DNA of 56,486 bases from Anaerolineae bacterium (GTDB lineage Bacteria; Chloroflexota; Anaerolineae; Aggregatilineales; JAFGMM01). Positions 14,174-55,054 of this stretch are shown here, piece by piece. The translations under genes and the position numbers were made by a program. The notes beneath the pieces are model-generated. The model saw only the letters and a program-made list of their open reading frames with translations. It made no database searches and had not been told where the DNA came from. Positions within the stretch are counted from its first letter, which is position 1. Each line of letters starts with the position of its first letter. The DNA is taken from the NCBI GenBank assembly GCA_034435135.1, contig DAOTXU010000393.1, forward strand, positions 1 through 56,486, written 5' to 3'.

Positions 14174-15151
14174 CTAATCCTGATACCCGTTGGGATGAGC
14201 GCGGTGCCAATCCCAGGCGGTCTGGATGATCTCGCGCAGGTCGGTGTAGCGCGGCTGCCAGCCCAACTCGCGCCGGATGCGCTCGCTGCTGGCGACCAGC
14301 ACCGCCGGGTCGCCAGCGCGTCGCGGCCCTACCTCGGTCGGGATGGGGTGACCAGTCACGGCGCGGGCCGCTTCCACCACCTGATAGATGCTGTATCCCT
14401 TGCCGTTGCCCAGGTTATAGTGACGGCTGCCCCTGTCCAGCGCGCGCAGGGCCAGGATGTGCGCCTGCGCCAGGTCATGCACGTGGATATAGTCGCGGAT
14501 GCAGGTGCCGTCGGGAGTGGGGTAGTCAGCGCCGAAGACGGTCAGCTTCTCGCGCTGGCCCAGCGCCACCTGGAGCACAATCGGGATGAGGTGCGTCTCC
14601 GGGTCGTGATCCTCGCCGCGTTCGGCGCTGGCCCCAGAGGCGTTGAAGTAGCGCAGCGCTGCGTAGCGCAGCCTGCCCAGCCGATCTAGCCAGTAGAGGA
14701 AACGCTCCAGGATGTATTTGGACTCGCCGTAGGGGCTGCCCGGCATGATACGCTCGTCTTCGGCGATGGGGACGTGCTGCGGGTGCTCGAACAGGTTGGC
14801 GGTGGAAGAGAGGATGAAGCGCGGCACGCCGTGCGCCTCGATCTGGCGCAGCAGGTTCAGGCCGTTGGTGACGTTGTCGCCCAGGTACATGAACGGCTTT
14901 TCCACCGATTCGCCTACCAGCGTGTACGAAGCGAAGTGCATCACACCGTCGAAACGGTGCGCATCGAAGAGGCGTTCCAGCGCCTCCATGTCGGCCAGGT
15001 CGGCCTGGACGAACTCCGCGTCCGGGTGCACCGCTGCGCGATGCCCCTGGAACAGGTTGTCCAGCACGACGACGCTGTCGCCCGCCTTAATCAGTTCCTC
15101 GACCACGATGCTGCCGATGTACCCGGCCCCGCCGGTCACCAGAATGTGCAT
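14174..15151 (-). CDS. galE: UDP-glucose 4-epimerase
   Basis: [14 protein letters not shown] Rossmann start, catalytic [10 protein letters not shown] (YxxxK) and full-length 325 aa typical of GalE. ATG verified at 15151. Confidence 0.9.
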
Positions 15152-15246
15152 GGTTGCTCCTCAAAAGGGATAGAGAGAGGTTTCCAAACCACGCAGGACA
15201 CAGAGAACACGGGGGTTGCAAGTTGCTTTTTGGGCAATCCCTTGCC

Positions 15247-15275
15247 GGACAGGGGGTTTTTAGACCCACCTGTCC
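15247..15275. repeat. Imperfect hairpin copy of the palindromic element (ggacagggggtttttagacccacctgtcc)
   Basis: Shares the ggacaggggg / cctgtcc arms with the 4100 copy but has a different loop. It lies 97 nt downstream of the minus-strand stop at 15372, between the sugar-kinase gene and galE. Confidence 0.4.
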
Positions 15276-15371
15276 GTTGAGGCCATTGCGCGTGACCCGC
15301 TACCGCAGCGCGAACGGCTTCCTCTGCGTTTCTCTGCGGGGAAAAAGAGCTGTTCGTTGCACAAGGGCGGC

Positions 15372-16388
15372 TCACCGCACCTCCCACGTCTGCAAGCCGA
15401 GGTGGTCAAAGTTAAAGTCAACCACCTGCGCGCCCAGGCGCTCCACTTGCTCGGCGACGATGTGTTTCTGATCGAACGGGCAGTAGAAGAACATGTAGCC
15501 GCCGCCGCCTGCGCCCGTAATCTTGCCGCCTAAAGCCCCATACTTCCGCGCGGTTTCATACAGTTCGTCGATGTGCGGGTTGCTGATCTGGGAGGCCATC
15601 TTCTTTTTATTCACCCATGCGTCGTTCAGCAGCGCGCCAAACTCATCCAGGCGGTTGCGGAGGAGGGCGTTCTTCAAACCGGTGGTGATCTGCTTCAGCT
15701 CTTCCATCGCCCGAATCACGTCCTCTTGCTTCTGCTCGTACCCTTTGACTTGCGTCTCAATAATGCGGCCCGAAAGCCGGGTGCTGCCCGTATAGCACAA
15801 CAGCATATTATAATGCAGTTCGTTCAAGACATCTGTGGGTATCCTGAGTGGGTTGACGATGGTCGCGTCGTGGAAAAACTCGATGTAGTTGAAGCCGCCG
15901 AAGGTGGCGGCGTACTGATCTTGCTTACCGCCCTTGATGCCCATATCCACGCGCTCGATCTGGTACGCCAGGTCGGCGATTTGGTAATTGGTGAGCGGCA
16001 GGTGCAGCCATTGCTTGAAGATGCCGATCAGCGTCACCACTATCGTAGACGACGAGCCGAGGCCGGAGCCAGGCGGCGCATCGCTGTGGATGAAGAAGTG
16101 TAGCCCCTGGTGGTTGTTGCCCTCCTTCAGCCGGTGGATGACAGCTTTGACCAAGTCAAGGTTGCCATCGTAGACCGGCGGCTCATCGACCTTGTACTTG
16201 GCGACGATGTCGTAATCCAGCGACGTGAGGGTGATCTCAGGGTCGTCCCCGAAGCGCAGCGAGCTATGGGCATACTTGTCGATAGTCGTGCTCAGCACGA
16301 CGCCGCCGCGCTCAGACACAAACGGTTCCACATCCGTGCCGCCGCCAGCAAAGCTGATCCGCAACGGCGCTCTACTACGCACAATCAT
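15372..16388 (-). CDS. GHMP-family sugar kinase, HddA-like (COG2605 type; D-glycero-D-manno-heptose 7-phosphate kinase or related sugar-1-kinase)
   Basis: MIVRSRAPLRISFAGGGTD start and GHMP motif PPGSGLGSSST. ATG 16388 forms an ATGA overlap with the upstream stop. Confidence 0.75.
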   Translation of the reverse strand: MIVRSRAPLRISFAGGGTDVEPFVSERGGVVLSTTIDKYAHSSLRFGDDPEITLTSLDYDIVAKYKVDEPPVYDGNLDLVKAVIHRLKEGNNHQGLHFFIHSDAPPGSGLGSSSTIVVTLIGIFKQWLHLPLTNYQIADLAYQIERVDMGIKGGKQDQYAATFGGFNYIEFFHDATIVNPLRIPTDVLNELHYNMLLCYTGSTRLSGRIIETQVKGYEQKQEDVIRAMEELKQITTGLKNALLRNRLDEFGALLNDAWVNKKKMASQISNPHIDELYETARKYGALGGKITGAGGGGYMFFYCPFDQKHIVAEQVERLGAQVVDFNFDHLGLQTWEVR

Positions 16389-17107
16389 GATTCGCCTCGC
16401 TTGCCGTTCACATACTGCCGAAACTTTAGATAACCTTCCGGTGTCCCGATGTCAACAAAAAAGCCTTCGACCGGGAACCCGTACAGATGGCGGTCGCGTT
16501 TCAACACCAGCGGGAACGTCTCTTTTTCGATGGCTATCGCCCTGCCGGCGGGGATTAGGTCCAGCATCTCCGGCTCCAGCACATAGATACCGCCATTGAT
16601 CCGGCCCGGCCCTGCGTGCGCCTTCTCCTGAAAGCGCAGGATACGCCAGTCGTCGTCCAGGTCCAGCGCGCCGGAGGTGGCAGTATCGTCTACAAAGCGC
16701 GCCGCGATGGTGCCAATTGTCCGATCGTCCGCCTGCTGCCGCTGCTGATGAAAAGCCGTCAGCGCTTGAAAATCCACATCCAGGTAGGTGTCGCCGTTCA
16801 CGACGAGAAACGTACCCTGCACAAAGCGCTCCGCGTTCTTGAGCGCGCCAGCGGTGCCCAGGCGCTCGGTCTCGACGGCGTAGGCAATTTGTACGCCCCA
16901 GCGGCGGCCATCTCCGAAATAGTCCTGAATCTGATGGGCGAGGTAGGCCACGCAAAAGACAAAATCGGCAAACCCGTGGTCGCGCAACTGCTCGATCAGA
17001 TATTCCAGAAACGGCTTCCCGTGGATGTCGGCCATCGGCTTGGGGCGGTCCGCCACCACCGGGTGCAGTCGTGTGCCCAGGCCGCCGACGAGAAACAAGG
17101 TCTTCAT
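16385..17107 (-). CDS. Sugar-1-phosphate nucleotidyltransferase (HddC/GMP-like NTP_transferase)
   Basis: MKTLFLVGGLGTRLHPVVADRPKPM is the GxGTRxxxxxxxxPK signature. 240 aa. ATG at 17107 (GTG at 17110 is also possible). Confidence 0.8.
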   Translation of the reverse strand: MKTLFLVGGLGTRLHPVVADRPKPMADIHGKPFLEYLIEQLRDHGFADFVFCVAYLAHQIQDYFGDGRRWGVQIAYAVETERLGTAGALKNAERFVQGTFLVVNGDTYLDVDFQALTAFHQQRQQADDRTIGTIAARFVDDTATSGALDLDDDWRILRFQEKAHAGPGRINGGIYVLEPEMLDLIPAGRAIAIEKETFPLVLKRDRHLYGFPVEGFFVDIGTPEGYLKFRQYVNGKRGES

Positions 17108-17141
17108 CACTCGCGCCTCTGGCTCAACCCCGATGCCGCCG

Positions 17142-18731
17142 TCAATACGCGCCCTTGCGCGTCAACACGACGATGATGGTCTGGAACATAATCTGGATGT
17201 CCAGCCAGATCGACCAGTTGCGGATGTAGTACATGTCGAGCCGCACCCGCTCCTCATAGGAAACGTCACTGCGCCCGCTCACCTGCCACAGCCCGGTGAT
17301 GCCCGGCTTCACGGTGAGCAGGTTCATAGCCCACTGGCCGTAGTTCGCCAGTTCGGGCGCGGTAATCATGCGCGGGCCGACAATACTCATCTCGCCCCGA
17401 AGCACGTTCACCAGTTGCGGCAGTTCGTCCATACTGGCCTTGCGCAAAAACCGCCCGATGCGCGTGATGCGCGGGTCGTTCTTCAGCTTGATCTCGCGCC
17501 CGTAAGTTTCGCGCTCCTCCGGGTGCGCCTGGAAATAGGCTTCCAGCACTTCATCGCCGTTGGTCACCATGGTGCGGAATTTGAAAGCGTCGAACGCCTT
17601 GCCCCCGACGCCCAACACGCGCCGCCGGTAGAAGATCGGCCCTGGCGAGTCGCTGCGGATGATCCAGGCGGCCAGGGGCATAATCAGGCTCAACATCAGC
17701 AGGCCTATGGCCGCTACCACGATGTCCAGGGTGCGCTTGAGCACCACGTCCACGCCAGTGAGCCGGACCTGGTTCACGTTCAAGAAGGGGATGTAGCCGA
17801 TATTCTTCACTTCGACGCCGGTGGTGAGGATTTCATACAGCCCGGTGGACATGTGCACGTTGACGGCGTCTAATAGCCCCCACTGCTGCTGGGTGAAGTC
17901 AACCAGTTGCTCGCGGTGCAGCGCGCTGGTAGCGACCATCAGGTCGGTCACATTGTGGCGGGTCAGGACATTCCCTACGTCCTCGACTCGGCCTAATACC
18001 CTCAAGCCTGGCAGCACCTCCGTCCCGACCGGTTGCTCATCGTCTAGGAAGCCGACCAAGTGCACACCCGACGCCGGCGCATCCAACAACTGGCGCGCGA
18101 TGGAAATGCCCTCGCCATTGGTGCCCACGACCAGCGCGTAGCTGGCGAAAAATCCGCGCTGGCGCAGCATCCGCACCATCCGGCGCATGATAAAGCGATC
18201 CGCTGTCACCGACAAGACGACGAGGACCCAGGACAGGAGCAACCACCCACGCGCGATCACCAGTTCGGTGTTCAGGAAGGCAAGCGCCATCACCAGGGTC
18301 ATGCTCACCGTGATGGCGTTGAAGATGCGCATGTATTCCTGCCAGCCCTCGAACAGAATCTTGCCGTCGTAAAGCCGGAAGAACGCGAACACCACCAGCG
18401 ACATCAGCATCAGCGTCAGAGCCAGCCGGGTATAGAGGAGGAAGTCGGAATTTCCCGCGGCGAACAATGGCGACGCGGTCTCGAAGCGCAGGATGTAGGC
18501 GGTCAGGTACCCGATGCCAATCGCCAGCGCATCCACGAGCACCAGCGCCGCCCAGAGCGCGAGGCGGGCCTTGTCCCGCACCTTAACTTTCGTCGCCGAC
18601 GTTCCCGCCGGCAGCACGAAGCGCTCCCAGCCATTGCCGGAGCGTTTCCTGTCGGGAGTTTCCTGCACAGCGGCAATCTGTTCGGGTTGCTTGGTCGTTT
18701 CCATAAACAGCGGCCTAAGCCTTCTCGTCAA
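17142..18731 (-). CDS. Polyprenyl-phosphate glycosyl-1-phosphate transferase (large WbaP/EpsB-type initiating enzyme)
   Basis: N-terminal multi-TM block, a central Rossmann-like region, and the C-terminal bacterial sugar transferase motifs SPGPIFYRRRVLG..FKFRTM..DELPQLVNVLRGEMSIVGPR. Start is either TTG 18731 (overlapping the upstream stop) or ATG 18704. Confidence 0.85.
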   Translation of the reverse strand: MTRRLRPLFMETTKQPEQIAAVQETPDRKRSGNGWERFVLPAGTSATKVKVRDKARLALWAALVLVDALAIGIGYLTAYILRFETASPLFAAGNSDFLLYTRLALTLMLMSLVVFAFFRLYDGKILFEGWQEYMRIFNAITVSMTLVMALAFLNTELVIARGWLLLSWVLVVLSVTADRFIMRRMVRMLRQRGFFASYALVVGTNGEGISIARQLLDAPASGVHLVGFLDDEQPVGTEVLPGLRVLGRVEDVGNVLTRHNVTDLMVATSALHREQLVDFTQQQWGLLDAVNVHMSTGLYEILTTGVEVKNIGYIPFLNVNQVRLTGVDVVLKRTLDIVVAAIGLLMLSLIMPLAAWIIRSDSPGPIFYRRRVLGVGGKAFDAFKFRTMVTNGDEVLEAYFQAHPEERETYGREIKLKNDPRITRIGRFLRKASMDELPQLVNVLRGEMSIVGPRMITAPELANYGQWAMNLLTVKPGITGLWQVSGRSDVSYEERVRLDMYYIRNWSIWLDIQIMFQTIIVVLTRKGAY

Positions 18732-19936
18732 CGGTAATGGCGGGGTTGTCCGGCCAGCGCATCCGCGTACACGTGTTCAAGGACTGCGGTCTCAGCATCC
18801 CAACTGTGATACGCCTCCACGAAATGACGCCCGGCCCTGCCCAGTTCGACGCGCCGCTCCGGGGCTGCCAGCAAGTCTAGCACATGGCGCGCCAGGGCTT
18901 CCGGCGTATCGCCGACCAGCAGGTCACGGCCTGGCGTCACCGCGAGCGCGGAGCACGCTTGCGGGGTGCACACGACCGGGGTTCCAGTCGCCATCGCCTC
19001 AAGGACTTTGTTCTGAATGCCCACACCGTACCGAATCGCCGCAACCGCTAGCGTTGCGCGCGCCAGGTAGGGCCGCAGATCAGGCACACTGCCGGTCACG
19101 GTTACACGCGGGTCGGTGGCCAACGCCTGCACCGCCGGGTCCGGGTCTTTGCCCGCGATGACGAGCCTGGCGTCGGGCGCTTCCGCCCACACCAGCGGCA
19201 TCACCTTTTGGGCCAGGTCGAGCGCAGCGGCAACGTTGGCATGATAGCTCACCTTGCCCGTAAACACGATGGTTGCCAGGTCCCGATCTTGTGGCGGCGC
19301 GCAGGTGAAGTAATCCAGGTCCACGCCGTTGGGCAAGACCACGCAATGCCCGTCCGGGTCGCCGCCGGCCAGCGCAACCAGCGCGTCCCGGTCGGCGGGC
19401 GACGTGACCAGCACGCGGTCGAAACGTGCCAGCAGCCGCCCCTCGAAGCGCCGGGTGCGACCCAGGTCCAGGTGCGCCATCAACTGACTCTTAAGGGTCG
19501 GCGCGTCTCGAAGCACGCGCTCGAACAACAACGAAATGCTGTCCACCGCGTCGTAGACGACGGGGGCGCCGTTTACGCCTGCACCGAGCGCTGCGCCGCG
19601 CAGGTGCTCAATGTGCACCACATCGAAGCGCGCCTGTCCCTGAATGCGCCGCACGAGCCGGCGGGCTTCGGGCGAGCGTGAGTATTCCATCTGGAGCGGC
19701 TGCCCGGTCGGCAGGGCGAGCAACCCGTTCCACAGGGTGCGCCAGCGCGGGTGGAGAACCAGATAGATCGCCTTGCACAGCCCACGCAGCTCTTCAAGCG
19801 CGCTCGCATCGTCGCCGGGCGGTTGCAGCGCCACCAACGTCACTTCATGCCCCCGCTTCGCTAGGGTCCGCACCCAGTAAAAAGGCCGGACTCGTATACG
19901 CGACGGCGGGTAAGGGGAAAGAAACAGCACTCGCAT
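18728..19936 (-). CDS. Family-4 (GT-B) glycosyltransferase
   Basis: MRVLFLSPYPPS start; C-terminal GIQNKVLEAMATGTPVV retaining-GT4 motif. ATG 19936 overlaps the upstream TGA by 1 nt (TGATG). Confidence 0.8.
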   Translation of the reverse strand: MRVLFLSPYPPSRIRVRPFYWVRTLAKRGHEVTLVALQPPGDDASALEELRGLCKAIYLVLHPRWRTLWNGLLALPTGQPLQMEYSRSPEARRLVRRIQGQARFDVVHIEHLRGAALGAGVNGAPVVYDAVDSISLLFERVLRDAPTLKSQLMAHLDLGRTRRFEGRLLARFDRVLVTSPADRDALVALAGGDPDGHCVVLPNGVDLDYFTCAPPQDRDLATIVFTGKVSYHANVAAALDLAQKVMPLVWAEAPDARLVIAGKDPDPAVQALATDPRVTVTGSVPDLRPYLARATLAVAAIRYGVGIQNKVLEAMATGTPVVCTPQACSALAVTPGRDLLVGDTPEALARHVLDLLAAPERRVELGRAGRHFVEAYHSWDAETAVLEHVYADALAGQPRHYR

Positions 19937-21144
19937 CAAGCAGCCCCATAGACCTGGTCCAACGGACGACAGGCGACGCGATAGTCATATCGGGTCTCAG
20001 CCAGCTTTCGCCCGCGCGCAGCTAACTGCTTTCTCAGACCGGGGGTGGTGAGCAGGCGCACCACCCGGTCGGCGAACGCGGCTGGCTCATCCGCGATGAG
20101 GATGTCCTCCCCGTCGGTCAAGGCGATGCCTTCACAGCCCACGCGGGTGGAGACCATCGGGATGCCCTCCGCCAGCCCGTTGAGAATCTTGACACGCATC
20201 CCGCTGCCCGCGTGCAACGGCACCACCATCAGCGAACTCTGGCGCAGGTAAGGTTCGGGGTCTTCGACGTAGCCCGTGACCGTGACGCTGGGGTCAGTCT
20301 GCCCGATGTGGATGATTTCCCGCGGCGGGCTTGCCCCGATCAGGGTGCAGCGCACCTCTGGCACAGAAGCCTTGACCTGCGGGTAAACTTCGTGCAAGAA
20401 CCAGAGGACGCCCTCCACATTGGGTGGCCAAGCCATGCTGCCGATGTGCAGCACGTTCGGCCCGGTGGGCGTCGGCTCGATTGGATGCACTTCGTCGGTG
20501 TCGATGGCGATGGGAATCACGACAATGTCGTCGCGCGCACCCACTTCAATCAGGGCGCGTTTGTCTTCTTCGCTCACCGCCAGCACCGTATCAAAGCGGC
20601 GGCACATCTCACCTTCGTAGCGCTGCAACAGACGCCAGTCGCGCCCATAAATCCACTTGCGCGGCCCCGGAGCCAGCACCTCCGCGAGGCGACGGTAAAG
20701 TAGCCATAAAGCGTTGTGCCGATCCAACACCCTGTGCGCGCCTTTCACACGCAGCGCAAACTGCGCCATGCTCAGTTGGTCGGCATGCACCACGTCGAAG
20801 CGCTGCTCGCACGCCAGCCGGTCAACCAGCGCGCGCATAGCGGGCCGGTTGTCACGGACCATCACCCAGGGGAGGTGTGTCAGCTCGCTGATCGCCAGAT
20901 ACCATAACGACCGCGCGTAGGATCGTTTCATCGGCGCGGTATACACTGCTTTGCACCATCCGCGCAGATGACGGATCGCCTCCTGCGTGTCGGTTTCGCG
21001 CACATAAGAGACCAGCGTCACCCGGTGGCGCTGCGCCAGGTATTTGAGCACGTTGTAGGTCTTGACTTTCGGCCCGCTGTCAAGCGGGTAAGGCAGGACC
21101 TGCGTTAACAGCAGGACTTCCTTAGCGTCTGCGACCTCTGGCAT
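19936..21144 (-). CDS. Family-4 (GT-B) glycosyltransferase
   Basis: ORF 19936..21255. ATG 21144 gives MPEVADAKEVLLLTQVLPYPLDSGPKV, and SGMRVKILNGLAEGIPMVST follows later. This start overlaps the wecB 3' end by 23 nt. Confidence 0.75.
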   Translation of the reverse strand: MPEVADAKEVLLLTQVLPYPLDSGPKVKTYNVLKYLAQRHRVTLVSYVRETDTQEAIRHLRGWCKAVYTAPMKRSYARSLWYLAISELTHLPWVMVRDNRPAMRALVDRLACEQRFDVVHADQLSMAQFALRVKGAHRVLDRHNALWLLYRRLAEVLAPGPRKWIYGRDWRLLQRYEGEMCRRFDTVLAVSEEDKRALIEVGARDDIVVIPIAIDTDEVHPIEPTPTGPNVLHIGSMAWPPNVEGVLWFLHEVYPQVKASVPEVRCTLIGASPPREIIHIGQTDPSVTVTGYVEDPEPYLRQSSLMVVPLHAGSGMRVKILNGLAEGIPMVSTRVGCEGIALTDGEDILIADEPAAFADRVVRLLTTPGLRKQLAARGRKLAETRYDYRVACRPLDQVYGAA

Positions 21145-22267
21145 GATCGACTCCGAATAGTGGATAGGATAAGATCGATTGGACAATGCGTTGACTTGCT
21201 TTCCCGTCGCCATAGGGGTTCGCTCCCTGCGACATGCGTTGATAGGCCGCTTCATCCTCCAGCAAGGTCACTACTTCGTGGACAATGCGGTGGTCGTCAG
21301 TGCCCACCAGCCGGACCACACCCGCCTCCACGCCTTCGGGCCGCTCGGTGACCTCGCGCATCACCAGCACCGGCACCTTCAGGCCGGGCGCTTCCTCCTG
21401 CATCCCGCCGGAGTCCGTGAGAACGATGTGCGCCTCGCGCATCATGCCGACGAAATCGTAGTAACCCTGTGGCTCGGTGAGGGTGATATTCGAGATGCCG
21501 CCCAGCCGCTCATGGACGGGTGCGAGGACGTTGGGATTCGGGTGCACAGGGTAGACGATGCGCACGTCGGGGTAGCGCGCCGCGATCTCGGCCAATGCCT
21601 CGCAGATGCGCGCCAGCGGCGCGCCGAAGTTCTCGCGCCGGTGCGCCGTGACCAGGATCAGCCGTTGGCCGTTGCTGGTCCAGCGCCGGCCATTGCCCTG
21701 CTCGCGCGCGATGCGCGCATCGGTCATCAGCAGCGCATCGATGACGGTGTTGCCGGTCACGACAATCGCCTCATCGCGCACCCCTTCGCGCCGCAGGTTG
21801 TCCCGGTTGCGCGCCGTCGGCGCGAAATAGAGGTCGGCGATGACATCGGTGACCCGGCGGTTAATTTCCTCCGGGTAGGGCTGCCACTTGTCGTCGGTGC
21901 GCAGGCCCGCCTCGACGTGGCCCACGCGCACACGGTGATAGTAGGCCACCAGGCTCGCGGCCATCACCGTCGTCGTGTCGCCCTGCACCAGCAGCCAGTC
22001 AGGCCGCTCTCGCGCCACCACGTCGGCGAGGCGCAGGAGCAGGTTCGCCGTGAGCTGCGGCAGGGTTTGATTGGGCGTCATCACATTCAGGTCGTAGTCG
22101 GGCCGGATGTCGAAGATTTCCAGCACCTGGTCGAGCATCTCGCGGTGCTGCGCCGTGGCGCATACCACTGAGGTGATTTTGTCCGGGTGTTTCTCCAGTT
22201 CTTTGATGACCGGGGCCATCTTGATGGCTTCGGGTCGGGTGCCGACCACGCTCATGACTTTCAGCAT
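21122..22267 (-). CDS. wecB: UDP-N-acetylglucosamine 2-epimerase (non-hydrolysing)
   Basis: ATG 22267 gives MLKVMSVVGTRPEAIKMAPV...QHREMLDQVL..DYDLNVM...VQGDTTT...HVEAGLRT, a textbook WecB/MnaA signature. The 71 upstream codons of ORF 21122..22480 are Arg/Cys/Trp-rich and look non-coding. Confidence 0.9.
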   Translation of the reverse strand: MLKVMSVVGTRPEAIKMAPVIKELEKHPDKITSVVCATAQHREMLDQVLEIFDIRPDYDLNVMTPNQTLPQLTANLLLRLADVVARERPDWLLVQGDTTTVMAASLVAYYHRVRVGHVEAGLRTDDKWQPYPEEINRRVTDVIADLYFAPTARNRDNLRREGVRDEAIVVTGNTVIDALLMTDARIAREQGNGRRWTSNGQRLILVTAHRRENFGAPLARICEALAEIAARYPDVRIVYPVHPNPNVLAPVHERLGGISNITLTEPQGYYDFVGMMREAHIVLTDSGGMQEEAPGLKVPVLVMREVTERPEGVEAGVVRLVGTDDHRIVHEVVTLLEDEAAYQRMSQGANPYGDGKASQRIVQSILSYPLFGVDHARGRRR

Positions 22268-22295
22268 ATTCACTCTACCTTTGACGCTGGGGCAG

Positions 22296-25991: not shown

Positions 25992-26210
25992 ACGGACCTC
26001 CTCACTTTATCCGCATCCACGCCCGTTGCCGGACATGGGAGACACATGATGCCTGCACCCGCGATAGGTTCAATGCGTGTTGGTTGACTGTGAAAACCGA
26101 TCAACGAACATGTTAGTAACCATATCTCTTTAAATTCTACCATGAGGTGGTATAGGTAAGGTGAACCCCCGGTAAAAGAATTCCTATAGCATTTCAGGCC
26201 GGCCTGAGCC

Positions 26211-27764: not shown

Positions 27765-27765
27765 T

Positions 27766-28278: not shown

Positions 28279-28324
28279 CGCCCTTATTCCCTCTGTGCGC
28301 AAGGACGGCCATCCGAGCCACCCT

Positions 28325-35351: not shown

Positions 35352-35428
35352 ACCGCTACCGTCTTGCTTCTCCCAAGCGCACACGAAAAATCCGCGTTGG
35401 GCACCGCCGTCAACCCTATTCCACAGCA

Positions 35429-36571: not shown

Positions 36572-36597
36572 CGTTTCCATCCTCTTTGAAAGTCGAG

Positions 36598-39249: not shown

Positions 39250-39451
39250 CCACAGCCTCCTGCTGCGTTTTGGGTCCAACGGTACCAGTGGTGCCAAACG
39301 CCTGCTGGACAGCGGGCGTCAGGATGTTGAAGCTGGAGATCATCCCGTTCGGGTACATCGAACCGGCGAGCGAGTCCAGGCAGGCAAAAGTGTTCCGCCA
39401 GCCGTCCCAGTTCACGATCACCATCGCCGCGTTGGGCCGGGTCGTCGTCAC
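39236..39451 (-). pseudogene. 71-codon remnant of a family-2 glycosyltransferase N-terminus
   Basis: The translation (M/V)TTTRPNAAMVIVNWDGWRNTFACLDSLAGSMYPNGMI aligns residue-for-residue with MTATKPKVAIVLVNWNELHHTLPCLESLAGLQYPNVWTI of the intact GT2 at 41316..42239. Where DNGSTDNS should follow it reads FNILTPAV, and it stops 30 codons later. The GTG start overlaps the AsnB-like stop (GTGA). Confidence 0.55.
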
Positions 39452-41256: not shown

Positions 41257-41315
41257 GGATACGTTTCCCCTGATGCTGTTCAACACCACCCAATTCCTGT
41301 AATCTCACCCTAAAC

Positions 41316-43293: not shown

Positions 43294-43357
43294 GTCCATC
43301 CCTCCGCAAGTTTGAGATGTCAGGGAAGTCTTCTTGCCTTCCACAAAGAGATTCACG

Positions 43358-48694: not shown

Positions 48695-48823
48695 AACATT
48701 GCCCTTTACAACGATGCCCTTCGCATTCGGTCCAGTCTTCGGTTTACGCGCCCCCTCGATGGTGCAGCTCACCCCGACCGGTACGCCAGCCGGGGGTGGG
48801 TGCCGCGCGCGGCTGGATTGCGC

Positions 48824-50500
48824 CTAACTGCGCACCCAGCCCAGCGTCTCTAGGCCGACTTCAATCGCCGACTTAACGACAGCCAGGTTGTTAAACATCT
48901 TGAGATAGGTCAGGATCGGACCAGGGCGGAAAGCCCACTCACGAAACGCGCGTCTCTGGTGGTATTCGAGTTGTTCTTTTGTAAGACCAGGATAGTCCAG
49001 GGCCGTCGATTTGTCCATATCCACTGATTCCCAGCGCTCGCCGGGGCGGAACCAGTCGTTGTCCATCACGTCGAAGAAGAACGGCGTGCCGGGGTACGGG
49101 GCGGCGATGTGGAACAGCGCGATGTCCAGCGGCAGGCTCTTGGCGAAGTCGATGGTCTCCTGGATGGTCGCTTCGGTCTCGCCGGGCAAGCCGATGATGA
49201 AGTAGCCCCAGTTCTTGATGCCGGCCTCCCGCGCGGCGGTCAGGCTCTCGCGGGCGCGCGCAGCGGTGGTGCCCTTCTTCGCGCGCTTGAGAATTTGCTC
49301 GTTGGCGCTCTCGATGCCCCAAGAGATCAGGTAGTTGCCGGCGCGCGCCATCATGCGCAGCATTTCCCGGTCCACATAGTCCACGCGGCTGTTGCACGTC
49401 CACTTGATCTTGACATTTTCGGTCAGCAGCAGGTCGCAGATACCCATCACCTGGTCGCGGTTGACTGTGAAGAGATCGGCGTACATGTGGATGTTGTGCA
49501 CGCCCAGTTCCTTGAGAATCTTGATCTCGTCCACGATGTTGCGCGGTGAGCGCAGCCGGATCGAGTACTGGTAGCTCACGTGCTTGATGCAGTACCGGCA
49601 GCCGGCGGTGCAGCCGCGGCTGGTGACAATGAACGTGAACGGCCCCTTAATCATCGGCATTCGCTGCTTTTCCAGCGGCAGCAGATGGTGAAGCGGGAAG
49701 GGCAGGTCGTCCAGGTTGGGGAAAAACGGGCGGTCAGGGTTGACGACAGTCTCGCCGCCGCGCCGCCACACCAGCCCCTTGATGTGACTCAGGTCCGGGT
49801 TGCCCGGCCCCTTGAAGCCCTCCGGCGCGCGGCTCCACTCGTATTCCGGGTCGGCGTCGCGGAACAGCTTGTCGATCTCGGCGCGGGGATGGACGCCCTC
49901 GAAGTAGTCCATCAACTCGCGCAGGGTCAGTTCCGGCTCGCCGCGCAGGATGTAGTCGAGCGCGGGGAAGTCTTCCATCGTCAGGCGCGGGATGGGGGTC
50001 ACGTGCGTGCCGAAGGCGATGGTTTTCGCCCCCAGGCTCTTTGCCAGGAAGACGCCGTACATGTCGTTGGTCAGCGTTGGCGCGGTAACCTGGGTGAGGT
50101 AATACTTCGGCTGCTTGTCGCGCAGAATCCCCTCGAATTCGGCCCAACTCATGCGCTCGGCGTTGGCGTCGATGATCTCCAACGTGTACTCCGGCGCGAG
50201 CAACGCCGCCAACTGCGCCAGCGACACCTGCGGCCAGATCATGTTCTCGCGCGAGCGCCGTCCGACGCGGTGCTGGCTGCGGATCCAGATTTTCCCGTCC
50301 GGCGTGGGCGGGTTGACCAGCAGGATGTCTACCGCGTCTTTGGGGCGCGGCGGCCTGAGTCTGCGGAACGCCTCGTCGGCGTCGGGCGATTTCGCCATCG
50401 GGAGCCTGGCGACGCGACGGGTCCCCAGGTTGCGCGAGATGTCGCTTTCGACGTTACCGTTGCCTCCCGTGTCCACCTTCTTCTCGAAAAGGTCAACCAT
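48824..50500 (-). CDS. B12-binding-domain radical SAM enzyme (class B rSAM, methyltransferase-like)
   Basis: ATG 50500 with AAGGAG 8 nt upstream. N-terminal cobalamin-binding-type domain (ILLVNPP...EIIDANAE...AKTIAFGTHVT) and the cluster motif VTSRGCTAGCRYC (CxxxCxxC). Confidence 0.8.
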   Translation of the reverse strand: MVDLFEKKVDTGGNGNVESDISRNLGTRRVARLPMAKSPDADEAFRRLRPPRPKDAVDILLVNPPTPDGKIWIRSQHRVGRRSRENMIWPQVSLAQLAALLAPEYTLEIIDANAERMSWAEFEGILRDKQPKYYLTQVTAPTLTNDMYGVFLAKSLGAKTIAFGTHVTPIPRLTMEDFPALDYILRGEPELTLRELMDYFEGVHPRAEIDKLFRDADPEYEWSRAPEGFKGPGNPDLSHIKGLVWRRGGETVVNPDRPFFPNLDDLPFPLHHLLPLEKQRMPMIKGPFTFIVTSRGCTAGCRYCIKHVSYQYSIRLRSPRNIVDEIKILKELGVHNIHMYADLFTVNRDQVMGICDLLLTENVKIKWTCNSRVDYVDREMLRMMARAGNYLISWGIESANEQILKRAKKGTTAARARESLTAAREAGIKNWGYFIIGLPGETEATIQETIDFAKSLPLDIALFHIAAPYPGTPFFFDVMDNDWFRPGERWESVDMDKSTALDYPGLTKEQLEYHQRRAFREWAFRPGPILTYLKMFNNLAVVKSAIEVGLETLGWVRS

Positions 50501-50570
50501 GTCAGAACTCCTTGAGAATGTCCCCTCATTTGGACTTGATGTGATGATGACTGCGAAATCCATTTGCGCC

Positions 50571-50607: not shown

Positions 50608-51870
50608 TCAGGTCGGGCTGACCCGCACCGGCGTGGCTGTTTCCGGGGCCGCCGCTTCGGGGGCGGATGCCTGGCCCAGGTCGCGCGCCGCCTGTTGTCT
50701 GCGTTTGCTCATTTCCTCTAACACGCGCATCAACACCCAGCTAATCATCAACTGAAAGCCTATCACAACGAACATCGCGCTGCCCAGGAAATAGAAAAAC
50801 ATGCTGGCAAAGTCTGGCTGAGCTACACCGGCGTTTGCAATCAGGACCAGAAGGCTGATTGCCAGGCCGACCACAACCGATCCAGCGCCCATCCAGCCGA
50901 AGTGATGGTCGAGCGACGGCTCGAAGATGGGGCGACCGAACAGTCCGAGCTTGACCTCCTCGCCGCGCATCAACCCGGCCAGGTAGTTGAGCGTCGCGCC
51001 GAAGGCGAAAATGCTGATGCCCACCACCGCCGAGACCACCGCCCAGAACAGCGCGAACGCGCCCAGCGGATCGATCTCGGTGGAGCCGCCTGCGCGCGCG
51101 GTCACCAGCGCCGCGCCGATCAGCGCGGCGAACACGACGCCCAGGCCGCCGATAAACCCAAACAGGCGCACCGGGTTGTAACTCAGCCCCGTCCAGATGA
51201 TGGTCTTGAGGAAGCGGATACCGTCCTTGACCGGGTTGAGCTTGGAGCGCCCCTTGCGTTCGTGGTAGGCGATGGGCACTTCGATCATCTTGATGTCTTC
51301 GTGCAGGGCGCGCGTGCTCATCACCGGTGTGAAGTTCAGGCCGTCGGGCAGGGGGTAAAGTTGCTCCAGCGCTGCGCGGCGCAGCAGGCGTTGCCCGCTG
51401 GCGCTGTCGCTGACGGAGGTCTTGCCCACAAAGCTCACCAACCCGGCGAAAAACACATTGCCCACCCGCCGCACCAGGGGCATCTCGCTCTCGGCTCCGG
51501 CCATGCGCGAGCCGATCACCAAGTCGGCGTTCTCGCGCAGCGCGGCCTCGTACATGGCGGGGAACGCCTCCGGCGGGTACGTCCCGTCAGCGTCGAGGAA
51601 AGCCAGCCATTCGCCGGCGGCGTTCTGAAAGCCGGTCTTGATCCCCGCCCCGTAGCCTTTGTTGACCTCATGCTGGAGCAGCCTCACCTTCGGCGCATAA
51701 CCGCGCACGATCTCAGCGGTGCGGTCGGTCGAGCCGTCATCAACCACGATGAGTTCGAGGTCAAGCCCCACCTCCTTGAGCGCCGGTTCTACCGCCAGCG
51801 TCCGCTCGATGATGTTGGCGATCCCATCTTCTTCATTCAACGCCGGGATCACGATGGATACAGTGGTCAT
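50608..51870 (-). CDS. Polyprenyl-phosphate glycosyltransferase (DPM1/GtrB/ArnC-like GT2 with C-terminal TM helices)
   Basis: ATG 51870 (GAGGAAG 6 nt upstream). VSIVIPALNEEDGI...IVVDDGSTDRT...LDADGTYPPE, then about 4 C-terminal helices and a Pro/Ala-rich tail. Confidence 0.8.
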   Translation of the reverse strand: MTTVSIVIPALNEEDGIANIIERTLAVEPALKEVGLDLELIVVDDGSTDRTAEIVRGYAPKVRLLQHEVNKGYGAGIKTGFQNAAGEWLAFLDADGTYPPEAFPAMYEAALRENADLVIGSRMAGAESEMPLVRRVGNVFFAGLVSFVGKTSVSDSASGQRLLRRAALEQLYPLPDGLNFTPVMSTRALHEDIKMIEVPIAYHERKGRSKLNPVKDGIRFLKTIIWTGLSYNPVRLFGFIGGLGVVFAALIGAALVTARAGGSTEIDPLGAFALFWAVVSAVVGISIFAFGATLNYLAGLMRGEEVKLGLFGRPIFEPSLDHHFGWMGAGSVVVGLAISLLVLIANAGVAQPDFASMFFYFLGSAMFVVIGFQLMISWVLMRVLEEMSKRRQQAARDLGQASAPEAAAPETATPVRVSPT

Positions 51871-51966: not shown

Positions 51967-52746
51967 TTACCGAAGCTTCGCGCGCATCCGGTCCAACTCG
52001 CCGAAATAGACCTGTGCGCTCACCTGTCTCTTCACCTGATCTTGCTCGCGCCGGTCGCGGATGACTTTGGCCGGCGAGCCGACGGCGATACTATCGGGCG
52101 GCAGGTCGCGCGTGACGACCGAGCCGGCCCCTACGACGCTGCCCTTGCCGATGCGCACGCCATCAACCACAATAGCGCCCGCGCCCAACCACACGTCATC
52201 TTCGATGACAATGCCTTCGGCGGTGATGCCCTGGTCCGCGATGGGCGTGTCTGGGTCCTGGAACACGTGGTTCACGGCCAGGATTTGCACCATCGGCCCG
52301 GTGAACACCTTGTCGCCCAGGGTCACGCCGCCTTGCCCCCGGATCACCGTATATTCGCCCAGGAAGCCATTCGCGCCGATGGTGATGCCGGCGTGCGGCA
52401 GATCTCGGAAGTTGAACACGTGCAACATGCACCCGTGCATGATCGTCGTGCCCGCGCCGATGCGGATTCCGTCCGGGCAGGCGTGCAGGTAGACGTGCGT
52501 ATCCAGGTACGCGCCCCTGCCCAGGCGGATGTTCGCCGGCTGGGCCAGGCGCACCCCGTGCTCCACCAGCGGGAGGCCGTCGCTCTTGAGAATGAGTTTG
52601 TAGCCGACCGCGCGCAGCCCGATCCCGACTAGACCGGGGACCCACCCCAGCAACCCCATGATGGTCTGTTCCACCACGTATCGGGGGAGGCTGGTGCTTT
52701 GAGCTTTCAGGTAGTACTTCAACTGCTGCACGACGCCCACGCTCAT
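51967..52746 (-). CDS. Left-handed beta-helix (hexapeptide repeat) O-acetyltransferase with an N-terminal membrane segment
   Basis: ATG 52746. Hexapeptide region VIEDDVWLGAGAIVVDGVRIGKGSVVGAGSVVTRDLPPDSIAVGSPAKVI; N-terminal helix LLGWVPGLVGIGLRAVGY. Confidence 0.8.
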   Translation of the reverse strand: MSVGVVQQLKYYLKAQSTSLPRYVVEQTIMGLLGWVPGLVGIGLRAVGYKLILKSDGLPLVEHGVRLAQPANIRLGRGAYLDTHVYLHACPDGIRIGAGTTIMHGCMLHVFNFRDLPHAGITIGANGFLGEYTVIRGQGGVTLGDKVFTGPMVQILAVNHVFQDPDTPIADQGITAEGIVIEDDVWLGAGAIVVDGVRIGKGSVVGAGSVVTRDLPPDSIAVGSPAKVIRDRREQDQVKRQVSAQVYFGELDRMRAKLR

Positions 52747-52838
52747 CAACCCTTAGTGTCTAAATCACCACTCTCAATCTACCGAATACCTGTAAACTGA
52801 CGGTGAACGCCAGGTGAACAAATGCCCAGCGCCCTTTG

Positions 52839-53942
52839 TTACCCAAATACATAAGCGTAGAGTCGTTTTATAGGTAAGCGTTTCGTGACTTCCATGAGCA
52901 GGAGCGGCCCTGCAAGGCCAATTACCGCCATGACCGGCACGTACACCAACGACACACTGCGGATGAAAGGCAGCAGCCCTGCCAGCCGGTTCAACATCCA
53001 CGCGCCGACGGTAATCGCCGCCGCGTGGCTGAGGTAGATGCCGTAGGTCTGGGCGCCGATTTTCTCCAACTGCTGAGCAAAGGGTAGCGTGTTGCGGTCG
53101 AGTGAGAGGAAGAACAACACAAAGAAAATCGCGTATCCCATCGAGGAAAACTTGTTGGGGTTCGACCCCCATCCGTGCCAGCCGATGGCGCGCACGACAA
53201 GCTCGCTTTCCAGGAGGCTCAACGCCCCGAAGACCACCGTCCCGATCCGCAGCGCGCGCCGGTGTCTTTCGAGCCAGGAGCCGATCTTTTTGCTGTGAAA
53301 GCCCAACACCATCCCCAGCGGAAAGTAGAGCGCCCACCATACGAACAGGGCGATGGTTCCATTCCCGCCGTAGCGCGCCAGTTGTTCGTAATCGGCCACG
53401 AAGTAGAGCGGCAGGGTAACGGCGACCTGAATCGCGCCGGTCACTGCCAGCAACCAGACTGGCTTTTGCTTGGCCCACCGCACCATGAACGGCGCCAACA
53501 GATAACACTGCATCAGCAAGGGCGCGAACCAGAGCACGTGGCCGTTGATTGTGAGCCTGAGGTACTCGTCGAGCGAGCGAAGCTCGCCGCTGGAGGCGTA
53601 ACTCAGCGCGAAGTACACCAGCGTCCAGATCAGGTAGGGCCACAACAGATTGAGCACGCGCGTCTTGACGAAACTCCAGCTGACCTTGGGCGGGTCGCCG
53701 CGCGCGACGAACACCACGAAGAAGCCGGAGATCACCAGGAACCCCGGCACCGAGAACAACGCCAACTGCTGGATAACGATATCAAAAACGTAGCTGGGCG
53801 TCGCCATTGCTTCCCAGAAGTTATTCACGGCGAATGAGACGCCGGCTGTTTCAAAAAGCATCCCAACCGCCCGGTGGCTGATGTGGTTGAGCACCACCGC
53901 GATCATCGCCAGCCCGCTGAGGGGCAAGAGCACCCGCCTCAT
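52839..53942 (-). CDS. Acyltransferase-3 family integral membrane O-acyltransferase (OatA/WecH-like)
   Basis: LSGLAMIAVVLNHISHRA start and about 10 helices. ATG 53942 forms an ATGA overlap with the esterase stop. Confidence 0.75.
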   Translation of the reverse strand: MRRVLLPLSGLAMIAVVLNHISHRAVGMLFETAGVSFAVNNFWEAMATPSYVFDIVIQQLALFSVPGFLVISGFFVVFVARGDPPKVSWSFVKTRVLNLLWPYLIWTLVYFALSYASSGELRSLDEYLRLTINGHVLWFAPLLMQCYLLAPFMVRWAKQKPVWLLAVTGAIQVAVTLPLYFVADYEQLARYGGNGTIALFVWWALYFPLGMVLGFHSKKIGSWLERHRRALRIGTVVFGALSLLESELVVRAIGWHGWGSNPNKFSSMGYAIFFVLFFLSLDRNTLPFAQQLEKIGAQTYGIYLSHAAAITVGAWMLNRLAGLLPFIRSVSLVYVPVMAVIGLAGPLLLMEVTKRLPIKRLYAYVFG

Positions 53943-55054
53943 TGCGCCCGCTCTCCAGCTTGAAGTTGCGCGCCAAGCCAGCGCAGCGCTTCCTCCGCGT
54001 TGGCCTGGATAAAGGCCGCTTCGTGTCCGCCGGCCCGGCGGTTAGCGCCTGACGGTTCAACCGTCAACCCGCGCGCCTTCGCCATATCGAGGAACGCCAT
54101 CATGTGCGCGTCGTAGTTGAGCGAGTCCCGGTCGCCAGCCACGATGAAGAAGCGGAAACCGGACACATCGAGGCTCTCATCCGCCAACAATTCGACCGGG
54201 TTGACCGCGCTGAAGCGCTGCCAGGTGGGCAGGTCCCCGTCCCAGACCGGCCCCGGTCGGGTGTCGCTGTTAAAGGGGGTGTAGTACAACCGCTCCAGCG
54301 TCAGCCGCCCGTCGGTTGAGATAATCATCTCCGGGCGGTCCTCTTCGAGGCGCTGGTAGCACGCGGCGTCGTAGTCGGCGATCGGGTCGCCGTTGCAGCT
54401 ATAACGAAAGTCCAGCGTGGGGTAGAAAGCCGCCACGGTCTGGGTGATTTGCGGGTATCTCAGCGCCACGTAGACGGCGCCGAAACCGCCATGCGACTCG
54501 CCGGTGAGCACGGTCCCGGCGGCGTCTTGGCGCACGTTGAAGGTCGTGCGCAGCCAGGGAATCAGCTCGTTCACGATGAAATCCTCGTGGCGGCCCAGGT
54601 TGCTGTTGATGAACCACGTGCCCTTGCCGTCGTCATAATCTGTCTCCGGCAGGTCCTCGCCTGTCCCGCCGATGGAGACATTCGGGAAAGCCGCCACTAC
54701 CGGCGGCAGGTCGCCGGCGGTGATGGCGCGCTCAAGCAGAGGGACGATTACGTCCGCTGCGCGTTGCTCGTTGTCGCCCCAGCCATGGAAGTAAACGAAG
54801 AGCGGGTAAGGATCCGCCTCTGCGTCGTAACCGGGGGGCAGGTAAACGAGCACATCGCGCTTCTGCCCTAAAATCCCGCTCTCGATGCGGCGGTCGCACG
54901 TCTCGCTGAACTGGCCGCTGCATGTGTTGGCGGTGTAGTCCACGACCTGGCCTGGCTGAGTAGCCGGCGTGGGCGTCGGTTCGGGTGTTGCGTTCTGACA
55001 CGCCGTCAGCAGCGCTACAGCAACGAGAACACCCCACATTCTGCCTCTCGCCAT
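53939..55054 (-). CDS. Lipoprotein esterase of the alpha/beta-hydrolase 'putative esterase' family
   Basis: ATG 55054 (GGAAGGGG upstream) gives MARGRMWGVLVAVALLTAC, a lipobox. VYLPPGYDAEADPYPLFVYFHGWGDN and the nucleophile elbow GESHGG. Confidence 0.75.
   Translation of the reverse strand: MARGRMWGVLVAVALLTACQNATPEPTPTPATQPGQVVDYTANTCSGQFSETCDRRIESGILGQKRDVLVYLPPGYDAEADPYPLFVYFHGWGDNEQRAADVIVPLLERAITAGDLPPVVAAFPNVSIGGTGEDLPETDYDDGKGTWFINSNLGRHEDFIVNELIPWLRTTFNVRQDAAGTVLTGESHGGFGAVYVALRYPQITQTVAAFYPTLDFRYSCNGDPIADYDAACYQRLEEDRPEMIISTDGRLTLERLYYTPFNSDTRPGPVWDGDLPTWQRFSAVNPVELLADESLDVSGFRFFIVAGDRDSLNYDAHMMAFLDMAKARGLTVEPSGANRRAGGHEAAFIQANAEEALRWLGAQLQAGERAQ

Follow-up and report, generated by a model that had tools for sequence, protein, structure and literature searches.

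How one run of genes can appear to hold three different ways of building a glycan is the question raised by positions 14174-55102 of a 56,486-nucleotide stretch of DNA (contig DAOTXU010000393.1 of assembly GCA_034435135.1; the whole stretch is called the window below) from an Anaerolineae bacterium of the phylum Chloroflexota. A preliminary description had read this interval as a merger of Wzx/Wzy-dependent assembly, synthase-dependent assembly and extracytoplasmic glycosylation by enzymes of the glycosyltransferase C (GT-C) fold fed by polyprenyl-phosphate sugars, and had called the three normally alternative. We think it probable, with moderate confidence, that the interval is one large envelope polysaccharide or exopolysaccharide (EPS) locus, encoding one Wzx/Wzy pathway with extracytoplasmic GT-C steps, and that it is an expanded version of a collinear locus that filamentous Chloroflexota have in common. 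A system of this kind is already known; it is a known combination in a lineage-typical form, not three merged logics. Glycosylation by a GT-C enzyme from a lipid-linked donor is a classical add-on to Wzx/Wzy O-antigens (PMC11127046), and the combination of Wzx/Wzy assembly, a GT-C enzyme and a lipid-linked donor is established (PMC11127046, PMC8035078, PMC10821137). To set these two logics apart as alternatives was thus mistaken, as they are complementary.

The Wzx/Wzy set and the GT-C proteins

The array contains one gene each (named here by lower coordinate) for an initiating phosphoglycosyl transferase (PGT, 17142), a Wzx flippase (36598), a Wzy_C-family protein (32662) and a polysaccharide co-polymerase fused to a bacterial tyrosine kinase (PCP/BY-kinase, 46709), all scoring above curated cutoffs. 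With these and the five glycosyltransferases of family GT4 (18728, 19936, 34134, 35429 and 43358), the Wzx/Wzy-dependent machinery proposed earlier is indeed encoded. Four family GT2 enzymes are present (23219, 31703, 41316 and 50608); the earlier count of five GT4 stands, while only two GT2 remain for a Wzx/Wzy list that had been given three. Among the 31 products there was no Poly_export match that would point to an outer membrane polysaccharide export protein (OPX/Wza), which fits a monoderm, and the predicted Wzx/Wzy set is complete for a monoderm. The single PGT, Wzx, Wzy_C and PCP/BY-kinase make one heteropolysaccharide the most economical reading. The 31 genes are listed here with their strand, (-), and the matches behind each assignment; scores are followed by curated cutoffs where these apply, and transmembrane (TM) segments were counted with a simple hydropathy scan.

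14174..15151 (-): GalE, UDP-glucose 4-epimerase (TIGR01179 402 bits, cutoff 262; PF01370)
15372..16388 (-): GHMP sugar kinase, HddA-like (GHMP_kinases_N/C; the heptose-7-phosphate kinase HddA is the best NCBIfam match, 313 bits, below cutoff 600)
16385..17110 (-): sugar-1-phosphate nucleotidyltransferase, ManC/HddC-like (PF00483 125 bits; NCBIfam matches below cutoffs)
17142..18731 (-): initiating PGT, a WbaP/EPS-type polyprenyl-phosphate hexose-1-phosphate transferase (Bac_transf 213 bits plus CoA_binding_3; TIGR03025 414 bits, cutoff 296; WbaP 385 bits, cutoff 403)
18728..19939 (-): GT4 (GT4a), core (Glyco_trans_1_4, Glyco_transf_4; ahead of the PGT in relatives)
19936..21144 (-): GT4 (GT4b), core (Pfam and synteny; start at 21144 or 21051)
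21122..22273 (-): WecB, UDP-GlcNAc 2-epimerase, accessory segment (TIGR00236 506 bits, cutoff 210)
22296..23222 (-): carbohydrate esterase family 4 (CE4) polysaccharide deacetylase, accessory segment (PF01522 76 bits)
23219..24445 (-): membrane GT2 with QRARW, EpsU-like, accessory segment (motif in the translation; EpsU 288 bits, below cutoff 700)
24696..25991 (-): 431-aa GT-C of the PMT_2 kind, accessory segment (homologues and profiles; about nine TM segments)
26211..27764 (-): extracytoplasmic BNR/Asp-box beta-propeller, core (BNR_2 34.5 bits, cutoff 31.4)
27766..28302 (-): truncated GT-C gene, read as the N-terminal 170-178 aa of a PMT_2 protein (PMT_2 E 0.0012)
28325..30142 (-): 605-aa GT-C, STT3/DPY19-like, with a C-terminal alpha/beta domain, core (AlphaFold 2 model and Foldseek)
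30202..31698 (-): 498-aa GT-C, core (AlphaFold 2 model and Foldseek)
31703..32665 (-): GT2, core (PF00535 93.5 bits; between Wzy and the GT-C pair in relatives)
32662..34137 (-): Wzy_C-family polymerase or ligase, 491 aa from the ATG at 34137 (PF04932 52 bits, cutoff 31.7; about 11 TM segments)
34134..35429 (-): GT4 (GT4c), core (Pfam, synteny)
35429..36601 (-): GT4 (GT4d), with the lowest GC of the array, 55% (Pfam, synteny)
36598..38106 (-): Wzx flippase of the MOP superfamily (Polysacc_synt, PF01943, 95 bits, cutoff 28; about 11 TM segments)
38179..39297 (-): 372-aa protein of the variable part (no significant family match)
39448..41289 (-): Asn-synthase-like protein with no recognisable glutaminase domain (PF00733 only; TIGR01536 60 bits, below cutoff)
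41316..42239 (-): GT2 (PF00535 73 bits; synteny)
42286..43356 (-): NAD-dependent sugar epimerase/dehydratase of the short-chain dehydrogenase/reductase (SDR) type (PF01370 172 bits; no NCBIfam equivalog above cutoff)
43358..44704 (-): GT4 (GT4e) (Pfam, synteny)
44721..46631 (-): AsnB-type glutamine amidotransferase (GATase_7 plus Asn_synthase; EPS-type amidotransferase models below cutoff)
46709..48772 (-): PCP/BY-kinase with a YRYRY cluster and a C-terminal HTH_17 (TIGR01007 145 bits, cutoff 108)
48824..50563 (-): B12-binding radical S-adenosylmethionine (SAM) enzyme, HpnJ-like, triad gene 3 (Radical_SAM 98 bits; HpnJ 201 bits, below cutoff 578)
50608..51870 (-): GT2 with four C-terminal TM segments, resembling polyprenyl-phosphate-sugar synthases, triad gene 2 (NCBIfam, below cutoffs)
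51967..52749 (-): hexapeptide-repeat acetyltransferase, triad gene 1 (Hexapep; WcaF/WbbJ-like, below cutoff)
52839..53942 (-): membrane O-acyltransferase, Acyl_transf_3 (PF01757 102 bits, cutoff 31)
53939..55102 (-): secreted esterase, probably a lipoprotein with an LTAC lipobox (PF00756 72 bits; start candidates 55102, 55096 or, as taken before, 55054)

Each gene that the preliminary description named was recovered in its place and in its family by the Pfam and NCBIfam scans; four others had been passed over, namely those for the GHMP kinase (15372), the nucleotidyltransferase (16385), the BNR protein (26211) and the 372-aa protein (38179). The last of these had no significant Pfam, NCBIfam or PDB match and no homologue in related loci. 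The Wzy_C start was placed by a 4-nt overlap and a 487-aa homologous counterpart in the close relative L001. The BNR protein has an N-terminal signal or anchor, a Pro/Thr-rich linker and a C-terminal TM anchor. The PCP/BY-kinase has an N-terminal domain flanked by two TM segments and, after its tyrosine cluster, an excisionase-type DNA-binding helix-turn-helix (HTH_17, residues 582-630, E 3e-4); the homologue in the closest relative, L001, has an identical domain set. This tail was rejected as a conserved feature of the locus, since it aligns in the closest relative only and alignments to distant relatives end before it. The kinase and nucleotidyltransferase at 15372-17110 best match HddA and HddC of the GDP-D-glycero-D-manno-heptose pathway, both below cutoffs, with no GmhA or GmhB nearby.

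By their own sequences, the four GT-C candidates had no significant Pfam match (27766 matched PMT_2 weakly, as listed). The GT-C assignment, which had been set beforehand as refutable by family searches, held nonetheless, through the folds of 28325 and 30202, the homologues of 24696 and the fragment 27766. The AlphaFold model of the 605-aa product of 28325, made from a 40-sequence alignment, had a pLDDT of 90.2 and a pTM of 0.91, and its top 31 Foldseek matches in the PDB were all GT-C proteins, including DPY19, STT3, AglB, PglB, AftA, ArnT, ALG12/9, Emb and Pmt4. The closest structures, STT3/AglB/PglB and DPY19, share with it the GT-C fold and a C-terminal alpha/beta domain (E 2e-8 to 5e-5, moderate TM-scores of 0.43-0.50, 12-16% identity). 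The sequence gave no Pfam match even at E 10 (PF02516, STT3, included), no NCBIfam match and no PDB sequence match; among the matches listed for its family, 0 of 120 carried a Pfam domain, and the named ones were called hypothetical. Its profile weakly matched 3vu0, which we take to be the AglB C-terminal domain (E 0.12), and in this weak alignment LSWWDYGNW, at the WWDxG position, stands opposite LSSLTvGqy, that is, S-S-L-T-x-G in place of the WWDYG of STT3/AglB/PglB. The predicted enzyme should not be classed as an N-oligosaccharyltransferase.

The 498-aa product of 30202 belongs to a family in which 119 of 120 among the matches listed had no Pfam domain. Its AlphaFold model (pLDDT 90.1) had as its top 23 Foldseek matches GT-C proteins or the GT-C-like PIG-U, a subunit of the glycosylphosphatidylinositol (GPI) transamidase, with STT3, AglB, ArnT, ALG12/9 and AftB in the lead. 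For the 431-aa product of 24696 the assignment comes from homologues and profiles: it has more than 11,000 representative homologues, PMT_2 (PF13231) was found in 38 of 40 close ones, and its profile matched AglB (E 5.7e-4) and, in hhalign, the 498-aa family (97% probability). Profile comparison detected no paralogy between the 605-aa and 498-aa families (24% probability), and when 24696, 28325 and 30202 were compared with PDB chains by sequence and profile, only the match of 24696 to AglB was significant, that of 28325 to 3vu0 being weak. An invariant Asp lies in the first extracytoplasmic loop in each family (D47 in the 605-aa family; D42 and D57, with a near-invariant D49, in the 498-aa family; D49 in the 431-aa family), and 27766 carries YYDE. 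That the two core GT-C families are almost without Pfam annotation, and that the 605-aa member is STT3-like without WWDxG, is new.

The fragment 27766 is read as a truncated PMT_2 gene; its sole homologue (P0242) bears PF13231. Relatives have a full-length PMT_2 gene of 500-580 aa beside the 605-aa gene, and the possibility that the 178-aa fragment is a remnant of this third GT-C was considered and rejected, as tblastn gave no link between them (only a weak match to 30202) and the sole homologue is a different PMT_2 protein. In L001 an insertion sequence (HTH_21 plus rve integrase, 9082-9946) lies between the genes for the full-length PMT_2 GT-C and the 607-aa GT-C, while in the window the cut PMT_2 gene has the opposite position relative to the 605-aa gene. 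The site around the 605-aa gene appears to be prone to rearrangement.

A collinear locus in Chloroflexota

The preliminary description had considered this density of machineries unusual. One genome per species was scanned; 188 stretches encoded relatives, 80 loci were kept, and the 31 window proteins were mapped on 84 loci, 82 of them with the 605-aa protein as anchor. Nearly all relatives are metagenome-assembled genomes. Chloroflexota labels were found on 77 of the 80 kept loci, which come from Anaerolineae, Caldilineae, Thermoflexales, Chloroflexia, Roseiflexaceae and Aggregatilineales and include the cultured Anaerolinea thermolimosa. Across the 82 anchored loci, 596 of 604 homologue regions share the anchor's strand. 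In 58 of 72 loci the 498-aa GT-C gene precedes the 605-aa gene at a distance of no more than 2.2 kb, and in 46 of 72 the BNR gene follows it at no more than 4.5 kb; of the 57 loci whose upstream sequence reaches 7 kb or more, 38 have Wzy. The recurrent order is Wzx, GT4, (GT2), GT4, GT4, Wzy, GT2, (GT4), 498-aa GT-C, 605-aa GT-C, (GT-C), BNR, GT4, PGT, GalE/GHMP and BY-kinase. Because these one-strand loci are collinear, GT-C genes inside a Wzx/Wzy cluster are the rule in the phylum and no oddity of this contig, and what had looked unusual is the norm for the lineage. This phylum-wide collinear core, as predicted from gene order, is new; in the literature searched, no paper was found that describes the locus in Chloroflexota.

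The closest relatives, L001 and L003 (65% and 61% identity in the 605-aa protein), have a compact array in the order BY-kinase with HTH, Wzx, GT2, GT4, Wzy, 512-aa GT-C, full-length PMT_2 GT-C, 607-aa GT-C, BNR, GT4, GT4 and PGT, followed in L003 only by GalE, which there comes after the PGT with 87% identity. The GHMP kinase was also found again near the PGT in relatives. In the 10 kb on either side of the anchor, relatives had no homologue of several window genes (those for CE4, the radical SAM enzyme, Acyl_transf_3, the esterase and the 372-aa protein), and AsnB had one. Blocks found independently in relatives had been named beforehand as grounds for giving up a single array, and synteny gave a divided answer: the WecB, CE4, GT2 and 431-aa GT-C genes are missing and the acetyltransferase-GT2-radical SAM triad is usually away from the GT-C pair, but the GT-C genes stay inside the Wzx/Wzy core.

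Two loci of A. thermolimosa IMO-1 (L064 and L067; NZ_DF967970.1, 7073-28668 and 63324-84919), each of 21.6 kb, are 100% identical, which is either a large exact duplication or an assembly artefact.

The accessory segment and the triad

A synthase-dependent pathway had been proposed from 23219, and it would make the array three independent machineries, cooperating or running in parallel, one of which would produce a polymer like poly-N-acetylglucosamine (PNAG) or chitin through the QxxRW GT2 and have it deacetylated by CE4. The product of 23219 does have the D, D, D, QxxRW signature (DAD, TED, QRARW) and N- and C-terminal TM segments, as PgaC and NodC have; its stop overlaps the CE4 start (ATG 23222) by 4 nt, and PgaC/IcaA is its second-best NCBIfam match. 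However, the best match is EpsU, over the full length and at 288 bits, whereas the synthase scores fall far under their cutoffs (PgaC/IcaA 57 bits against 422, CelA 30 against 699, NodC 23 against 550), and EpsU is one of five transferases in a Wzx/Wzy-dependent EPS pathway of Myxococcus xanthus (PMC7484181). None of the synthase partners PgaD/IcaD, BcsB, PilZ or Alg44-type proteins was found among the 31 products. The pairing with CE4 is not conserved either: none of the 84 related loci has a CE4 homologue, and two have the QxxRW GT2, both times with no CE4. In L030 this GT2 lies directly before WecB inside the core Wzx/Wzy cluster, with no 431-type GT-C, and in L056 it adjoins Wzx. A separate synthase pathway is not supported by this comparison, and three independent machineries are very improbable.

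L001 and L003 have no counterpart of the segment 21122-25991 between BNR and the GT4 pair. WecB and the 431-aa GT-C were each found in three of the 84 loci, the 431-type GT-C standing beside the 498-aa GT-C gene, with no QxxRW GT2, in L008, L017 and L027. Given this absence and these arrangements, the segment is read, from its predicted genes, as a strain-specific accessory insertion that feeds the same polymer, not as a separate synthase pathway. It would add a residue derived from ManNAc or GlcNAc, possibly de-N-acetylated.

A more specific role, compatible with a single Wzx/Wzy polymer, would be Arn-like: WecB would supply UDP-ManNAc, the GT2 would load the sugar on undecaprenyl phosphate (Und-P), CE4 would remove its N-acetyl group, and the GT-C 24696 would transfer the amino sugar to the polymer outside the cell. 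In the Arn pathway, ArnD deformylates Und-P-linked 4-deoxy-4-formamido-arabinose (Und-P-Ara4FN), and the GT2, CE4 and GT-C of the segment mirror ArnC, ArnD and ArnT. The segment's four genes lie side by side, gaps of 219 and 250 nt set it off on the high-coordinate side, and it is absent as a unit from L001 and L003. Yet the GT2 resembles EpsU and PgaC, not ArnC, GtrB or the DPM1 type (PpgS 23 bits), and relatives break the set up: L030 has the GT2 and WecB but neither CE4 nor a 431-type GT-C, and the three loci with a 431-type GT-C have no such GT2. We consider the Arn-like route improbable, though less so than three machineries.

The other GT2 of special interest, 50608, had been called DPM1-like. 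Its best NCBIfam matches are indeed all polyprenyl-phosphate-sugar synthases (AglJ 133 bits, dolichyl-phosphate-hexose transferase 93, ArnC 84, PpgS 64), but each lies below its cutoff, so that a likeness stands where an assignment does not. Its C-terminal part with four TM segments gave no GtrA match, even at E 10. This gene is the middle member of a triad with fixed order (hexapeptide acetyltransferase, GT2, B12-radical SAM), order and orientation being conserved. Relatives of the radical SAM protein were found in at least 568 metagenome stretches and show 62-70% identity among 80 loci kept (L085-L164), many of them short; the GT2 lies directly upstream of the radical SAM gene in 57 of these 80 loci, and the acetyltransferase was found in 44. 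In many contigs the triad has GHMP-kinase, PGT, BY-kinase and GalE genes as neighbours. It usually sits at a distance from the GT-C pair; in L103 and L112 it stands immediately ahead of Wzy, GT2, GT4, GT4, GT-C and PGT, with the GT-C within about 7 kb, and in L044 its first two genes come after the 605-aa GT-C. The triad is a separately conserved predicted module, and it is new. A synthase-like GT2 locked to an acetyltransferase and a radical SAM enzyme suggests a sugar that is remodelled while lipid-linked. HpnI and HpnJ are a precedent, their remodelling taking place on hopanoids.

L044 (JAUWXF010000008.1) is labelled Desulfobacterales and has a Chloroflexota-type locus (49% identity in the 605-aa GT-C, 54-58% in the triad genes); the contig is probably misbinned. 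In L093, L115 and L153 an AMP-binding enzyme and then an AsnB-like gene follow a few kb downstream of the triad, their products having 25-32% identity to the AMP-binding and AsnB proteins encoded at 5239-7005 of the window.

Assembly, competing readings and genomic setting

Gene content, protein families, the GT-C folds and synteny are observed here; the order of reactions, the donors, the acceptors and the polymer itself we infer from them. On the reading of one Wzx/Wzy polymer, the PGT 17142 would prime Und-P, and up to eight cytoplasmic glycosyltransferases, five of them GT4 and at most three GT2, would assemble a large repeat unit on the inner side of the membrane from sugars supplied by the products of the GalE, WecB, SDR, AsnB and kinase/nucleotidyltransferase genes. 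Wzx 36598 would flip this unit, and Wzy_C 32662 would polymerise it, with the PCP/BY-kinase 46709 controlling this step. Outside, the core GT-C proteins 30202 and 28325 and the accessory 24696 may add residues or transfer the chain with the use of lipid-linked donors, one of which would probably come from the triad (51967-48824), where the HpnJ-like radical SAM enzyme and the acetyltransferase may modify the sugar on its lipid, as gene linkage and the HpnI/HpnJ precedent suggest. The exported polymer would be the target of the membrane acyltransferase, of the esterase, in a trimming role, and of the BNR propeller.

Several points weigh against this reading. No genes of the locus are more constant than the two for the core GT-C proteins, unlike decorating enzymes, which are usually variable. 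The GT2 50608 scores below every curated cutoff and is found no further than 10 kb from the 605-aa GT-C in just nine of 82 relatives, in most of these at about 30% identity, and no polyprenyl-phosphate-sugar flippase of the GtrA, MATE or SMR type was found among the 31 products; none of the intergenic gaps is long enough to hold a gene for one. PF04932 also holds WaaL and PglL-type ligases, so 32662 is a putative polymerase and not a certain one. The synteny counts cover 10 kb on either side of the anchor, and labels of paralogous GT4 and GT2 genes are best tblastn matches and thus approximate. Four intergenic gaps of 150-250 nt (15152-15371, 24446-24695, 25992-26210 and 39298-39447) could have room for internal promoters.

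A competing reading has two products, a Wzx/Wzy polysaccharide and, beside it, O-glycans that the PMT_2-like and STT3-like GT-C enzymes, fed by the polyprenyl-phosphate-sugar module, would put on Pro/Thr-rich envelope proteins such as the BNR protein or surface filaments; in another form of it, the Wzy_C protein is itself a PglL-type O-oligosaccharyltransferase. PMT_2 relatives are protein O-mannosyltransferases, the BNR gene follows the GT-C genes and its product has the Pro/Thr-rich linker before its membrane anchor, the ligases in PF04932 count here as well, and the triad is mostly apart from the GT-C pair. Densities on the archaellum of Litorilinea aerophila, also of the Chloroflexota, were interpreted as likely O-glycans (PMC12488501), and a streptococcal study describes GT-C enzymes that glycosylate Ser/Thr-rich regions of membrane proteins (PMC12041528). 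The PCP/BY-kinase, however, argues for a polymer of high molecular weight; the GT-C pair lies between Wzy/GT2 and GT4/PGT on one strand with very short junctions, and the 605-aa protein lacks WWDxG at the aligned position, in an alignment that is weak. Two products seem unlikely to us, and the single Wzx/Wzy polymer is the reading we retain.

Comparison with known systems places the locus among related pathways. Wzx/Wzy EPS and capsule loci (the M. xanthus eps locus, PMC7484181; Gram-positive cps loci) likewise have co-directional genes for a PGT, GT4 and GT2 enzymes including an EpsU-like one, Wzx, Wzy_C, a PCP-BY-kinase with a Tyr cluster, an acetyltransferase and sugar-nucleotide enzymes. 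The window differs from them in having no OPX/Wza and in two to four mid-cluster GT-C genes that are more constant than its other genes, a BNR propeller beside these, HTH_17 on the BY-kinase and the B12-radical SAM triad. Three-component systems (GtrA/GtrB/GtrC of Shigella and Salmonella; GT136 pentofuranose transfer, PMC11127046; CsbB/YfhO and similar systems in Gram-positives, PMC8035078) also join a synthase-like GT2 and a GT-C to a primary polysaccharide pathway, and in the window both are encoded in one array; here, in contrast, no flippase dedicated to the donor turned up, the GT-C is core and not accessory, and the GT2, below cutoffs, is tied to the triad. The dual-chain assembly of lactococcal rhamnan and polysaccharide pellicle (PSP) (PMC10821137, PMC9574508) resembles it as a monoderm system in which one cluster holds a flippase/polymerase route and a GT-C for a composite wall polysaccharide, while the window has no rhamnan or ABC-transporter genes and no LCP ligase, and its GT-C families are unrelated in sequence.

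Chloroflexota have no lipopolysaccharide (LPS) or BAM genes, and their extra envelope layers have been "suggested to be polysaccharides or proteins" (PMC13319060). A glycan locus that is collinear in Anaerolineae, Caldilineae, Thermoflexales and Chloroflexia is a genetic candidate for these layers, open to tests in culturable carriers such as A. thermolimosa, and it directs attention to two abundant GT-C families nearly devoid of Pfam annotation and to the triad. A bolder proposal, speculative and at present rather doubtful, is that the core Wzy_C-GT2-GT-C498-GT-C605-BNR-GT4-PGT builds an outer envelope layer or sheath of filamentous Chloroflexota, in which the 605-aa GT-C would be a new ligase that moves the polymer from undecaprenyl pyrophosphate (Und-PP) en bloc to an envelope acceptor, replacing LCP or WaaL, and the triad would remodel a lipid-linked sugar in the HpnI/HpnJ manner.

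The layout of the array agrees with the earlier account of 31 genes on one strand. Genes were told from shadow open reading frames (ORFs) by third-position GC (GC3) in a window of about 63% GC, and one coding frame per gene was chosen in this way, which supports 31 minus-strand genes over 14174-55102. No independent plus-strand gene was found inside the interval, where the plus-strand ORFs of high GC3 are antisense shadows of minus-strand genes. The ORF 25988..26560 (-), of 190 aa, was rejected as an out-of-frame artefact of GC-rich DNA: it fails GC3, is rich in Arg and Pro and overlaps the 3' end of the BNR gene, and once it is discounted the true gap beside that gene is 25992-26210. The short overlaps of 1-4 nt reported before are allowed at nine of the 30 junctions, where a 1- or 4-nt start/stop overlap is possible (starts at 16388, 18731, 19939, 23222, 32665, 34137, 35429, 36601 and 53942; at 16388 the nucleotidyltransferase stop overlaps the GHMP-kinase start by 4 nt), and three further junctions have gaps of at most 4 nt. 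Promoter-like sites were no commoner than chance, no minus-strand terminator-like site was found inside any intergenic gap, and no tRNA or Rfam element was found in the window. The longest contig on record for the window's own proteins is also 56,486 nt long, and the window appears to be an entire metagenomic contig. The array has 62.3% GC against 66.8% in the 14-kb flank, with single genes from 55% to 70%; this spread and contrast fit a mosaic history.

At its low border the array converges on a plus-strand gene that ends at 14091, and at its high border it diverges from a second CE4 deacetylase gene (55252-56265, plus strand; PF01522 108 bits), which faces away from the first gene of the array and may belong functionally to the locus though it lies outside the single-strand run. 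The flank at 873-4043, 7178-10378 and 10639-14091 (plus strand) encodes two tandem paralogous proteins with LysM and SdrD_B, a 1066-aa protein with no family match and a 1150-aa protein with Reg_prop repeats, all of them probable envelope or surface proteins.

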